Below, one piece after another: positions 18,446-20,677 of a DNA stretch of 64,000 nucleotides (positions are counted from its first letter, which is position 1; every line of letters begins with the position of its first letter). This DNA is from an uncultured Methanomassiliicoccaceae archaeon. GTDB taxonomy: Archaea; Thermoplasmatota; Thermoplasmata; Methanomassiliicoccales; JACIVX01. The stretch covers positions 4,843-68,842 of the forward strand of contig CAZJDY010000020.1 in NCBI GenBank assembly GCA_964544915.1, in the 5' to 3' direction. The notes beneath the pieces were generated by a model. That model was not told the DNA's origin, did no database searches, and saw nothing but the letters and a program-made list of their open reading frames with translations. The translations under genes were made by a program, and so were the position numbers.

Positions 18446-20677
18446 TCATTCGTGCTGTTTAATCACTTCCATCTCTCTTTCGAGGATGGAGCGCTCCTGC
18501 GTTTTCAGGCTTTCTTTGTTCACCGACACCAGGAATATCGCCTGGCGCTCGGAGACCTCGTCCACAACGTTCCTTATGAATCGCACGATCCCTTCGAAGG
18601 TGGTGTTGCTGATGAGATATTGGATGTCGTCCAAGAGCACTATGCTTCTCTTGTCTGGCTGGATGAACTCCTCGATGATTAGCATTATTCTCTCAAGGGA
18701 TGGCATGACGGTGCGCTCGGTCTTCGATTCGTGATCCGTCAGCCAGAAGACTATCGCTTCCATGTCCCCCAACTTCTCCCTCAGGACCCTCGGGTGCCCT
18801 CTGGCTATCGCCAGGCCTTTGTAGCCTTCCTTGAGCTTCGAGGCGAATAACCTGTGGGATACATCGGGCTTCTCCTCTTCCACCAGGTAACTCTGCCCTT
18901 CCTGGACCTCAATGTTGACCTGCGCGTTCTTCACTTCCTTCGTCTCCCGGGTGAGTATCTCCTTGGCCAACTTGATCGTGATATCGGAGCGCATCAGCGA
19001 GGAGAACGCAACGACTCTGTTCAGACCGCCCTCCAGCTGCCTGACGTTGTCCCTGCACACCTCGGCGACGAACCTGAGGACATCCTTCGGAACGGACAGC
19101 TTGTCCTCCCTCGCCCTCCTCTCGAGTATCGCGAGCCGGGTCTGGAGGTCCGGGGGCTGGATATCGGCTATCAGGCCGGACTCGAACCTCGTCGCCAGCC
19201 TGTCTCCAAACGACGGAATCTCCTTCGGAAGCCTGTCGCAAGCCAGCACTATCTGCCCGCCTTTGTCCATAAGGTCGTTGAATATGTGGAAGATCTCCTC
19301 CTGGATCCGCTCCTTCCCGGCAAGGAACTGCAGGTCGTCGATTATCAGGAAGTCAGCCTCGCGGTAGGTTGTCCTGAACTCCTCCAACCTCTTCGAGGCC
19401 AGCGATTCGATCAGGTCCTCTTCGATCGCATCAGTGGATGAGTATGTCACCGTGAGCTGGGGGCTGTGCTCCCTCACGTAATTCCCTATCGCCTGGAGGA
19501 GGTGGGTCTTCCCGAGCCCCGACCTGCTGTAGATGAAAAGGGGATTGTAGACCTTGCCAGGGGTAATCGCCGAAGCTCTGGCCGCCGCCTCTGCGAATGA
19601 GCTGTTCGGCCCGGTCACGAAGCTCTCGAAAGTCAGACGCGGGTTCAGGGGGCGACCGTATGGAGCCTTCTCCCCGGCGCCGATGCACCTCGGGCAGTTC
19701 CCGCTCGAGTCGAGAGGTCCGCCGCAGCTTGGGCACTGCGTCCTTTTCGGGATGCCCTGCGAGCTCATCCTGTGATACTGGAGTATGAGGTCGTAGACCC
19801 CGTCTATGCGTTCATCAAGCTTCTTCCTATCCATGTCGTCCTGGATTTGCTTCTCTGCAAGGACGGCGGAATCGGACCTCTCTATCCTTTTGCGGAGCGC
19901 CTCAAGCTCCGCCTGGGTATCCGACGCCCTCTCTGGATCCCTCATCTTTCTTAGAAGGGACTCCGTCTCTCTCTCGTACCCATTCGTCCTCAGGAACCGG
20001 AGGCTCTCCTTCATCTCCTCGATCTTCTCGATGTTCGTCTCGAAGTAGGGCAGCGCCTTGGCCGCCTTCTGAGGATTGCTATCGTAAAGGTCAAGGAGGC
20101 TGTGAACGTCGTAACCGGCTTTCGACCACTTGATTATTCTCTTCGCGGCCTTCTCATCCACGTCCTTCAGCATCTCCTCATCGACCCGAATCACCGGATG
20201 GGGGATCCAGGGAGGAGGAATCAGTTCGACGCGATTCACTTCCGCGCCCTGGAAGATGCTCGCGATTTCCTGCGGTTGGATCTTAGCGTGGAGAGTGACG
20301 ATCGCGTCCTGGCAGACGGAGTCCTGCCATATGTACTCGACGGCCTTTCCTCCCTTGTAAAGTCTGTCCTTGTCCGCCCCGGAGCGCTTGAAGACGTAGG
20401 CAGAAACGACTGGATCGCCATCCATGAAAAGGATCAATCCTTCGGACCTATTCCCGCTGTCGACTAGGGCGACCTTGATGTATCCCGAGAAGGAGTACTT
20501 CCGGACCTCGTCGAGAATCCTCTTCAGCGTGCTCTCCGTTCCGTTCTGCTTCTCGACGACCTGTCCCTCTGGTACTCCCATTTCGGCTAGCACACTCATC
20601 ATCAGACAATCGCGGTGAAATCTTAAATCCTTTATGGAGCCCCCGACTTCTGGGCGGAGGTCGTCGCCCTCGGTCAT
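18446..20677 (-). CDS. Chimeric DnaA-type AAA+ ATPase with an N-terminal PATAN/DUF4388-like region, helical region, zinc ribbon, DnaA domain III and a DUF835-like C-terminus
   Basis: Residues ~345-565 read [51 protein letters not shown]...[19 protein letters not shown]...[12 protein letters not shown]...[26 protein letters not shown]...[12 protein letters not shown]. This is the bacterial DnaA domain III signature with Walker A/B, sensor and box VII-like elements. [17 protein letters not shown] lies upstream. The C-terminus ([15 protein letters not shown]...VFWLTDHE...[11 protein letters not shown]) is DUF835-like. No DnaA domain IV is present. Confidence 0.8.
   Translation of the reverse strand: [743 protein letters not shown]

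Follow-up and report, generated by a model that had tools for sequence, protein, structure and literature searches.

An archaeal gene in the 64,000-nucleotide (nt) stretch of DNA analysed here (the window; positions 4,843 to 68,842 of contig CAZJDY010000020.1, from an uncultured Methanomassiliicoccaceae archaeon) encodes a protein, here called protein A, in which a bacterial DnaA domain III lies between domains of archaeal type. DnaA is the hallmark initiator of bacterial replication, and archaea are textbook Orc1/Cdc6 organisms. Protein A appears to be a chimeric P-loop protein specific to the Thermoplasmatota lineage. The DnaA engine within it, gained by horizontal transfer, would serve a lineage-specific KaiC-type module as a self-assembling switch gated by ATP. 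Both the anatomy of the protein and the evolutionary reading can be put forward with high confidence. That it works by ATP-gated assembly and is not an initiator is rather probable, and the explanation taken as a whole is evenly poised between being right and being wrong. A role related to DNA is possible, and we suggest it tentatively.

From its N- to its C-terminus, protein A consists of a DUF2226/PATAN-like domain, a helical unit, a C4 zinc ribbon, DnaA domain III and a DUF835 domain. The original prediction, made from the sequence alone, had placed a DnaA domain III here, and Pfam Bac_DnaA (PF00308) matches amino acids (aa) 344-504 with E = 4.6e-60 and 202.9 bits; with its lid the domain fills nt 18923-19651. 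The NCBIfam DnaA equivalog TIGR00362 gives 319.2 bits, under its cut-off of 343.9, and its alignment spans profile positions 99-349 of 437, corresponding to domain III with neither domain I nor domain IV. Other DnaA equivalogs in NCBIfam score far under their cut-offs. Hda models reach no more than about 108 bits versus the 319 of TIGR00362 (TIGR03420 scores 108.5 bits, cut-off 194.8), with a weak Pfam match to Hda_lid (E = 0.0026) in the module. Of the predicted label 'DnaA/Hda-like', the first half is therefore upheld by the 319 bits and the second, at 108 bits, is not. A comparison with Orc1/Cdc6 had also been called for: DnaA models are far ahead, and no Orc/Cdc6 model surfaces in the Pfam and NCBIfam output, only the generic AAA_22 (28 bits) and ATPase_2, under cut-off. 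Models of helper ATPases also stay under their cut-offs (IstB_IS21, 19.9 bits for 24.1; IS21_help_AAA, 46 for 200; DnaI, 23 for 228). Among solved structures the best matches are the DnaA chains 8bv3 and 8btg, at ~253 bits and gapless over 233 aa, followed by the DnaA chains 2z4r and 1l8q; Hda gives only 48 bits. Identity to E. coli DnaA is 46% (236 residues compared) and to the DnaAs of Listeria and Bacillus 52-53%, and some archaeal members of the family are mutually no closer than that. By these scores the AAA+ module is of DnaA type and not of Orc1/Cdc6, Hda or DnaC type.

Domain III is complete, with a core that includes the initiator-type helical insert, and a lid. The motifs are Walker A GLGKTH (K390), Walker B D447/D448, sensor I D481, box VII R493, Arg finger R497 and sensor II R546, and they align with K178, D235/D236, D269, R281, R285 and R334 of E. 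coli DnaA, the protein from which the roles of these residues are known. The Walker A lysine and the Walker B Asp-Asp pair are each kept in 103/103 archaeal homologs, and the sensor I aspartate and sensor II arginine in 102/103 each. The finger position is occupied by arginine in 82 of the 103 and by lysine in 19. This pattern of conservation shows purifying selection on the DnaA-type ATPase site and on the putative trans-acting finger. Judged by its residues, domain III is intact and its ATPase apparently active. The equivalents of the E. coli residues that contact single-stranded DNA (ssDNA) are likewise all kept in protein A (I423, K455 and R457 for V211, K243 and R245), and Lys or Arg stands at the K243 position in 92 of the 103 homologs.

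DnaA domains I and IV are absent from protein A. Pfam detects no DnaA_N (domain I) in it and no Bac_DnaA_C (PF08299, domain IV) at E <= 1. The absence of domain IV, which had been claimed at the outset, is confirmed from two further sides, in that the TIGR00362 alignment stops at position 349 of 437 and the C-terminus is modelled as a RecA/KaiC fold. The suspected DUF835-like module at ~18458-18895 is a clear match to Pfam DUF835 (PF05763), which covers aa 603-736 with E = 2.6e-24 and 86 bits (cut-off 33.1) over profile positions 4-136 of 136. Structure models covering the two terminal domains were made with AlphaFold2. The model of the C-terminal 154 aa has a predicted local distance difference test score (pLDDT) of 95.3 and shows an alpha/beta RecA/KaiC fold, not a helix-turn-helix. 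In Foldseek its best match is FlaH (4yds; E = 3e-5, query TM-score (TMq) 0.65), with further matches to KaiC, RecA, Elp456 and PH0250; FlaH, KaiC, RecA and Elp456 are matched at probability 1.00 and TMq 0.5-0.72, and every one of the 86 matches at E <= 1e-3 has the RecA/KaiC fold. The fold is settled by this structure search, an hhalign comparison of the C-domain profile with the neighbouring KaiC-like protein as a single sequence being uninformative (probability 0.9%). The P-loop site of the domain reads YL[VI]EE[DE][KR]P in 32/32 aligned homologs. DUF835 has been labelled 'iKaiC', for inactivated KaiC, by Galperin et al. 2018 (PMC5847659), and is an output domain of archaeal response regulators, for instance in REC-DUF835 proteins (PMC5847659).

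The original prediction had domain IV 'replaced' by DUF835. The absence of the one and the presence of the other are both borne out, and the verb is what needs revision. PATAN-like and iKaiC domains also occur fused directly, without the AAA+ cassette, and the sequences are better read as a DnaA domain-III cassette set between a PATAN-like and an inactivated-KaiC domain.

The N-terminal domain matches Pfam DUF2226 (PF09987) marginally, with E = 4.7e-5 and 23.4 bits for a cut-off of 22, over profile positions 1-104 of 252. Its model is alpha/beta with a pLDDT of 95.6. Foldseek finds no significant match to it in the PDB (best E = 0.038, TM < 0.33), and the fold gives no functional clue. A resemblance to PATAN/DUF4388 had been proposed for this part of the protein; Pfam finds no direct DUF4388 (PF14332) match in protein A at E <= 1, and the resemblance holds transitively, via DUF2226. 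An exhaustive profile search with the domain retrieved 239 cluster representatives, proteins of 74-1420 aa in which it is almost always at or near the N-terminus. Pfam, run on 62 of these, found Bac_DnaA in 17, DUF835 in 15, DZR in 4, DUF4388 (PATAN) in 3 (best 2.7e-12) and DUF2226 in 2 (2e-20), and the DUF2226 and DUF4388 matches overlap in one Theionarchaea protein. The helical region that follows (aa 161-311) belongs to no Pfam family and is the least conserved part of protein A, with a mean pairwise identity of 0.33. Between it and the AAA+ core stands the zinc ribbon, CPSC...CPRC as predicted, the four cysteines of which are kept in 28/32 aligned homologs and lost in one Thermoplasmata subclade.

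Signals of an origin are missing from the surroundings of the gene. The DnaA box TTWTNCACA does not occur in the 64-kb window (0 found versus 1.3 expected by chance), and since the helix-turn-helix of domain IV is missing, protein A should be unable to read such boxes. The origin recognition box (ORB) consensus of the Methanomassiliicoccales forms no cluster in the window and has one chance-level match, far from the gene; no repeat array was found at 16-23 kb. Methanomassiliicoccales have two orc1/cdc6 genes and ORB origins, with no DnaA-like protein among their replication genes (Borrel et al. 2014, PMC4153887). These results, the missing domains I and IV and the existence of a whole subclade without the cassette fit the opinion, given with the original prediction, that the protein is a repurposed ATPase switch rather than an initiator. 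It is the second half of that opinion which they bear out; 'switch' is inference only.

The origin of the module was examined in a neighbour-joining (NJ) tree of the AAA+ region (246 columns, 200 bootstraps), in which bacteria were sampled by four DnaAs and E. coli Hda. All archaeal modules fall within the DnaA group, from which Hda is separated at 100% support, so the phylogeny that had been proposed as a check places them among bacterial DnaAs. Archaeal and bacterial DnaA sequences interleave, Bacillus DnaA clusters with the relatives P0101, P0290 and P0315 at 99%, and the deep nodes are unresolved. From these sequences we conclude that the module is of bacterial DnaA origin and was horizontally acquired. 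Because of the deep nodes we claim neither a donor phylum nor a number of transfers, be it a single one. The joint arrival of dnaA and gyrBA from one bacterial dnaA-...-gyrB-gyrA segment was considered; it is conceivable as the genes are neighbours, and their orientations differ.

A word-indexed search returned >100 clusters (90% identity) with Bac_DnaA and DUF835, from metagenome-assembled genomes (MAGs) of Methanomassiliicoccales and Thermoplasmata; MAGs are the source of most relatives of protein A. A scan of GTDB, with one genome per species and the C-domain alignment as query, gave 318 relatives. The best 80 of the 318 were examined and are all Thermoplasmatota-type records, some of them titled only Methanobacteriota or Euryarchaeota. 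By this sequence evidence the family is widespread in Methanomassiliicoccales and Thermoplasmata and conserved across Thermoplasmatota. At NCBI its members are entered as 'DnaA/Hda family protein' or as 'DUF835 domain-containing protein', and at JGI as 'chromosomal replication initiator protein DnaA', a label wrongly applied and a common misannotation in archaeal MAGs. The survey of this domain order in archaea, suggested along with the original prediction, finds it in those >100 clusters and in 55/78 GTDB loci. Novelty is tempered by the >100 such proteins already in databases under generic or wrong names. The literature searched, which does not include the KaiC-hub paper of Makarova et al. 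2017 (mBio), holds no description of the architecture. The family is widespread, unnamed and functionally unexplored.

Several architectural forms exist. The long form, ~700-740 aa with the AAA+ module, is found in 55 of 78 analysable loci. A short form of ~335 aa, made of N-domain, linker and DUF835, takes the same syntenic site in 20 of the 78 (for example L030, 5440-6462). In an NJ tree of the N-domain plus C-domain the short forms group into a single clade (100% support) that has the long-form Methanomassiliicoccales as its sister; the long-form Thermoplasmata are outgroups. Since the short-form clade is thus nested among long forms, the AAA+ cassette was most parsimoniously lost secondarily in this one subclade, with the rest of the gene kept. 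Loci L053 and L056, from Methanomassiliicoccales/Thermoplasmata MAGs, encode 445-457-aa proteins with the helical region and DUF835 and no detectable AAA+ module; the N-domain is seen only in that of L056, and both adjoin a B-like gene (protein B is described below). They may reflect a further loss of the DnaA cassette, independent of the first, or else represent a paralog. Forms of ~610 aa keep the N-domain and AAA+ module and are without the helical unit. Giant forms of 1330-1440 aa combine the N-domain, at least seven 'W-x3-GY-x-V' units, the DnaA AAA+ module and a C-terminal double zinc ribbon, with no DUF835. By BLASTP the helical region of protein A (aa 161-311) matches at least seven separate places along one of them, P0315.

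Protein A can be set against several known systems. With bacterial DnaA it shares the AAA+ core and lid, Walker A and B, sensors I and II, box VII and the Arg finger, in a gapless alignment at 46-53% identity, and therefore ATP-dependent oligomerisation would be expected. It differs in being without domain I, the domain II linker and domain IV, in its PATAN-like, zinc-ribbon and iKaiC flanks, and in its host lineage, archaea with Orc1/Cdc6 origins. Four of five defining features of DnaA are not found: domain IV, domain I, a score over the equivalog cut-off, and nearby DnaA boxes. Hda/HdaA, a regulator and not an initiator, is likewise a DnaA-clade AAA+ protein without domain IV. Hda, however, has ~230-250 aa, consisting of domain III and an N-terminal clamp-binding motif, whereas protein A has 743 aa and no QL[SP]LPL-type clamp-binding motif by regular-expression search, and in these archaeal cells there is no DnaA on which an Hda could act. 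DnaC, DnaI and IstB belong to the same AAA+ clade and form ATP-dependent spirals on ssDNA, as loaders or switches. Protein A is clearly of the DnaA subtype instead, the models of those proteins being weak and under their cut-offs. By analogy, it probably works like the repurposed DnaA-clade ATPases Hda, DnaC and IstB, via ATP-dependent assembly, and is a member of none of these groups.

The flanking domains have their own points of comparison. The C-domain is a bona fide DUF835, and the short form, with just the N-domain and DUF835, fits the output-domain pattern of iKaiC proteins. Unlike REC-DUF835 proteins, protein A has no REC or PAS domain and carries the DnaA cassette between its sensor-like N-domain and DUF835. 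FlaH/ArlH binds ATP, which the DUF835 of protein A, having no P-loop, cannot do by that route. The N-domain scores over the DUF2226 cut-off and its profile retrieves DUF4388-positive proteins, although only positions 1-104 of the 252 in the full DUF2226 profile are matched. From the archaeal world, the B251 protein of fusellovirus SSV1 has long been called DnaA-like; it is a small, distant, viral AAA+ protein. Protein A is unlike B251, as that protein is described, in being chromosomal and far closer to real DnaA.

The gene for protein A is a single open reading frame (ORF) on the reverse strand (Table 1), and all peptides quoted in the original prediction are present in its 743-aa translation. 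The true start codon is probably not the first ATG but M26/M27 (nt 20602/20599), because the N-termini of homologs align from 'M(V)SVL.EMGVPEG'. A TATA-like TTTAAG, read by eye ~25 nt 5' of the ATGATG at 20602, fits this start. Between the start of the gene and thiC lies an 88-nt tRNA gene at 20771-20858 on the forward strand (Rfam tRNA, 58.7 bits); ARAGORN could not assign its anticodon, which suggests an intron-containing archaeal tRNA.

Table 1. Coordinates of protein A, its domains, neighbouring genes and giant relatives (window positions unless a locus is named)
Feature	Position (nt)	Strand	Details
Protein A, maximal ORF	18446..20677	-	743 aa; single ORF in the ORF list
Protein A, likely coding sequence	18446-20602	-	~718 aa from M26/M27
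N-terminal alpha/beta domain (DUF2226 N-part, PATAN/DUF4388-like)	20228..20581	-	aa 33-150
Helical region	19745..20197	-	aa 161-311; one 'W-x3-GY-x-V ... DPE' unit of ~100 aa plus a coiled-coil-like stretch
C4 zinc ribbon CPSC-x9-CPRC	19679..19741	-	aa 315-331 (nt 19685-19735); read from sequence
DnaA-type AAA+ (domain III)	18923..19651	-	core aa 343-504, lid aa 505-585
DUF835 (RecA/KaiC/FlaH fold without P-loop, 'iKaiC')	18458..18895	-	aa 595-740
Protein B, convergent partner	17307..18440	+	377 aa; ends 5 nt from the stop codon of A
gyrB, bacterial-type DNA gyrase	22494-24389	+	translation; Pfam-labelled orthologs in related loci
gyrA, bacterial-type DNA gyrase	24398-26914	+	translation; Pfam-labelled orthologs in related loci
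Single-domain KaiC-like ATPase	27120..27821	+	233 aa; Pfam KaiC 1.4e-36, NCBIfam KaiC-type models
Coiled-coil protein with two C-terminal zinc ribbons	27853..29103	+	416 aa; co-directional with KaiC; Pfam DZR, Zn_ribbon
Giant relatives of protein A (P0290, P0315, P0412-P0419, and at locus L084)	L084 8001-12263		

The closest companion of protein A is protein B, which lies tail-to-tail with and adjacent to A in 82/83 loci, the lone exception being at a contig end. The pairing holds across at least three flanking contexts, including loci with unrelated flanks (L002, L090). Neither this partner nor a tie to KaiC and gyrase had figured in the original prediction. Protein B consists of a double zinc ribbon, an acidic linker that is rich in Pro and Ala and varies in length, and a helical domain. 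The ribbon gives Pfam DZR and Zn_ribbon matches, and the family alignment identifies eight invariant cysteines. The helical domain comprises about four repeats of 63 aa, seen in an hhalign self-comparison as matches of 95-96% probability at offsets of ~63 and ~126 aa. Over 55 residues, the double zinc ribbon at the C-terminus of the giant forms shares 47% identity with that of B, a likeness that may be counted as a weak Rosetta-stone link between A and B. Homology between the helical region of A and the helical domain of B was also considered and is unsupported (hhalign probability 6.7%).

Upstream of A, within 6 kb, thiC is found in 66/83 loci and gyrB, divergent from A, in 59/83. The gyrBA pair is a conserved part of the neighbourhood, and it is uncertain whether it belongs to the module in function. 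Judged by length, gyrB and gyrA of the window contain no inteins; related Methanomassiliicoccales have inteins (Intein_splicing, LAGLIDADG) in gyrA/gyrB, at L001 2098-5622 and L088 4581-8217. In L088 an IS605 OrfB element also lies between gyrA and KaiC.

The KaiC-like gene is 3' of gyrA in the window and in L001, L003, L088, L089 and L091, and in the window, L001 and L003 it and the coiled-coil gene run in the direction of gyrB-gyrA. In loci that have no gyrase alongside (L090, L072, L077, L079, L081) it is the immediate neighbour of B. An ortholog of the coiled-coil protein follows KaiC in L001, L003, L072 and L081. The position of KaiC beside B in loci without adjacent gyrase suggests that A, B, the KaiC-like ATPase and the coiled-coil zinc-ribbon protein may form a four-gene module. 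In BLASTP the similarity of B to the coiled-coil protein is confined to the zinc ribbons, and the SMC- and JetC-like matches of the latter, a protein of 416 aa, reflect its coiled coil only. The P-loop of the KaiC-like ATPase is unusual: it reads GPPGSMKT, in which Met takes the place of the second Gly in the expected GxxxxGK[ST].

On the B side the frequent neighbours are an Lhr helicase, an apurinic/apyrimidinic (AP) endonuclease and OGG. Two Lhr-type helicases are encoded in the window, at 7477-12843 (+) and 49501-52254 (-). The larger, of 1788 aa, has AlkZ-like glycosylase and winged-helix domains and often neighbours B in Thermoplasmata loci. The original prediction had noted mcm in the same window. 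MCM sequence is indeed there, and it is a 3' fragment only: nt 1-764 (+) encode the C-terminal third of the protein (NCBIfam MCM positions 492-680 of 682), with 'ALLSRFDLIF' near nt 45.

How protein A might work can be drawn from these parts. ATP bound at Walker A/B would be contacted in trans by the Arg/Lys finger, giving head-to-tail oligomerisation as in DnaA. Both ends of protein A carry domains of a protein-interaction type. The PATAN-like domain, the iKaiC domain and the zinc ribbon may supply contacts to partners, and assembly may alter how these are engaged; protein B, the KaiC-like ATPase and its coiled-coil zinc-ribbon companion are the candidate partners. The field of action would most likely be chromosome or DNA metabolism, that is topology, repair or control of the replication cycle. 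We lean this way because of the gyrase, Lhr and base-excision repair neighbours and the ssDNA-contact residues of this ortholog.

A number of observations weigh against this account. The equivalent of V211 in the H-motif is hydrophobic in just 67 of the 103 homologs, and that of R245 is Arg in 53, although R245 varies among genuine DnaAs too. At locus L091 A is present and B is not, and as A and B are convergent they cannot be co-transcribed. All four proteins, and the zinc ribbons of B, are acidic (isoelectric point 4.3-5.6), and strong binding to DNA is not what such values suggest. Gene order inherited within one class could account for the synteny with gyrase, Lhr and repair genes. The N-domain and iKaiC families are associated with signalling (PMC5847659), and a role away from DNA fits them equally well.

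In an alternative account, protein A provides a signalling hub centred on KaiC with its output or scaffold, with no involvement of DNA, its PATAN-like and FlaH-like iKaiC domains talking to, for example, type IV pilus-like motors, and the AAA+ module serving as an oligomerisation device. The listing of DUF835 as an 'iKaiC' output domain, as in REC-DUF835 (PMC5847659), is in keeping with such a hub, as are the archaellum protein FlaH as top structural match of the C-domain, the link of the N-domain to PATAN/DUF4388, the acidity of the proteins and the uneven conservation of the ssDNA-contact positions. The window even has a pilus-like T2SSE/T2SSF cluster and another KaiC-like fusion protein at 35-44 kb; the cluster is, however, 15 kb off and outside the conserved neighbourhood, in which the recurrent genes are gyrBA, Lhr, AP endonuclease and OGG. 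A whole DnaA-specific fold held at ~50% identity is also more than a generic oligomerisation device would need, and we regard a pure signalling role as somewhat unlikely. A role in replication is less probable still and should be called unlikely outright. Protein A would then be an accessory or alternative initiator or a factor that melts origins. It might also load or regulate a helicase (MCM or Lhr) in the manner of DnaC/DnaI, with the zinc ribbon and partner proteins, not domain IV, directing it to its target. The intact ATPase and ssDNA-contact residues of this ortholog would suit that role, and many genes of the region serve replication or repair (the 3' end of MCM at 1-764, Lhr, gyrase, OGG and AP endonuclease). 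The zinc ribbon directly N-terminal to the AAA+ module recalls the layout of DnaI, a bacterial loader with a zinc-binding N-domain ahead of its AAA+ module, and the giant and P0101-type variants stand beside Bacillus DnaA in the NJ tree at 99%. Yet DnaA boxes, an ORB cluster and domains I and IV are all lacking; a whole subclade does without the cassette, and the IstB and DnaC models stay under their cut-offs. The order Methanomassiliicoccales moreover has orc1/cdc6 genes and ORB origins, and Borrel et al. (PMC4153887) do not list the protein among replication genes.

Far less probable is that A and B, with or without KaiC, are a defence system or the cargo of a mobile element. Defence systems often contain AAA+ ATPases, KaiC-like ATPases and zinc ribbons, and PADLOC gives weak matches to mad8 for A (9.9e-5) and to JetC for the coiled-coil protein (1.5e-5), but these are marginal and generic, the JetC match lying on the coiled coil. 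Plasmid and phage records cover at most ~36% of protein A, every match being an ordinary bacterial dnaA, and the fixed chromosomal site beside thiC-gyrBA in dozens of species-level genomes is unlike a defence island. A chimeric assembly, or bacterial contamination of a MAG, might come to mind since most relatives are from MAGs. The DnaA module, however, is in frame in one ORF between archaeal-type domains, and the architecture occurs in >100 clusters (90% identity) and 55/78 GTDB loci, some on contigs of up to ~2 Mb that include MAG chromosomes. An assembly artefact is refuted by this recurrence across independent assemblies, and we give the idea practically no credence.

Protein A is of interest in several respects. 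A major archaeal lineage has long kept a complete and evidently active DnaA ATPase without its DNA-address domain, on an archaeal signalling-type scaffold and with a dedicated partner, which makes it a natural experiment in what the DnaA engine can do apart from origin recognition. Hda, DnaC and IstB, the known DnaA-clade ATPases put to new uses, are joined by a further branch, and KaiC-type modules are tied to a DNA-metabolism neighbourhood. Misannotation of these proteins as DnaA in archaeal MAGs could mislead origin prediction and contamination checks. A bolder proposal, which we consider unlikely, is that protein A forms ATP-dependent, DnaA-like filaments on DNA, targeted by its zinc ribbon and partners in place of domain IV, and controls initiation, helicase loading or gyrase-linked topology beside Orc1/Cdc6. 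If this were true, the Thermoplasmatota, the phylum of the Thermoplasmata, would run a hybrid archaeal/bacterial replication control with a KaiC-type switch as its gate.

Other features of the region may be recorded. Zinc-ribbon proteins are strikingly abundant in it. Located 3' of the KaiC/coiled-coil pair, at 29318-34912 (+), is a gene for a 1864-aa protein with CARDB repeats and C-terminal double zinc ribbons, and a similar gene, for 1661 aa, has the equivalent position in L003. The pilus/archaellum-like cluster, at 35115-41550 (-), encodes two T2SSE proteins with PilB3_C, two T2SSF proteins and one DUF7289 protein, and lies outside the conserved neighbourhood of the DnaA-like gene. Adjoining it, at 42458-44410 (-), is the gene for a 650-aa protein with a C-terminal KaiC/FlaH-like domain. 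Finally, the proteins P0104-P0120 (e.g. HJQ21134.1 from Gemmatimonadaceae) are bacterial and are named 'DnaA/Hda family protein' by NCBI. They have ~640-660 aa with two DnaA-type AAA+ modules in tandem and no domain IV (5/5 scanned), and look like another repurposing of DnaA domain III, in this case within bacteria.

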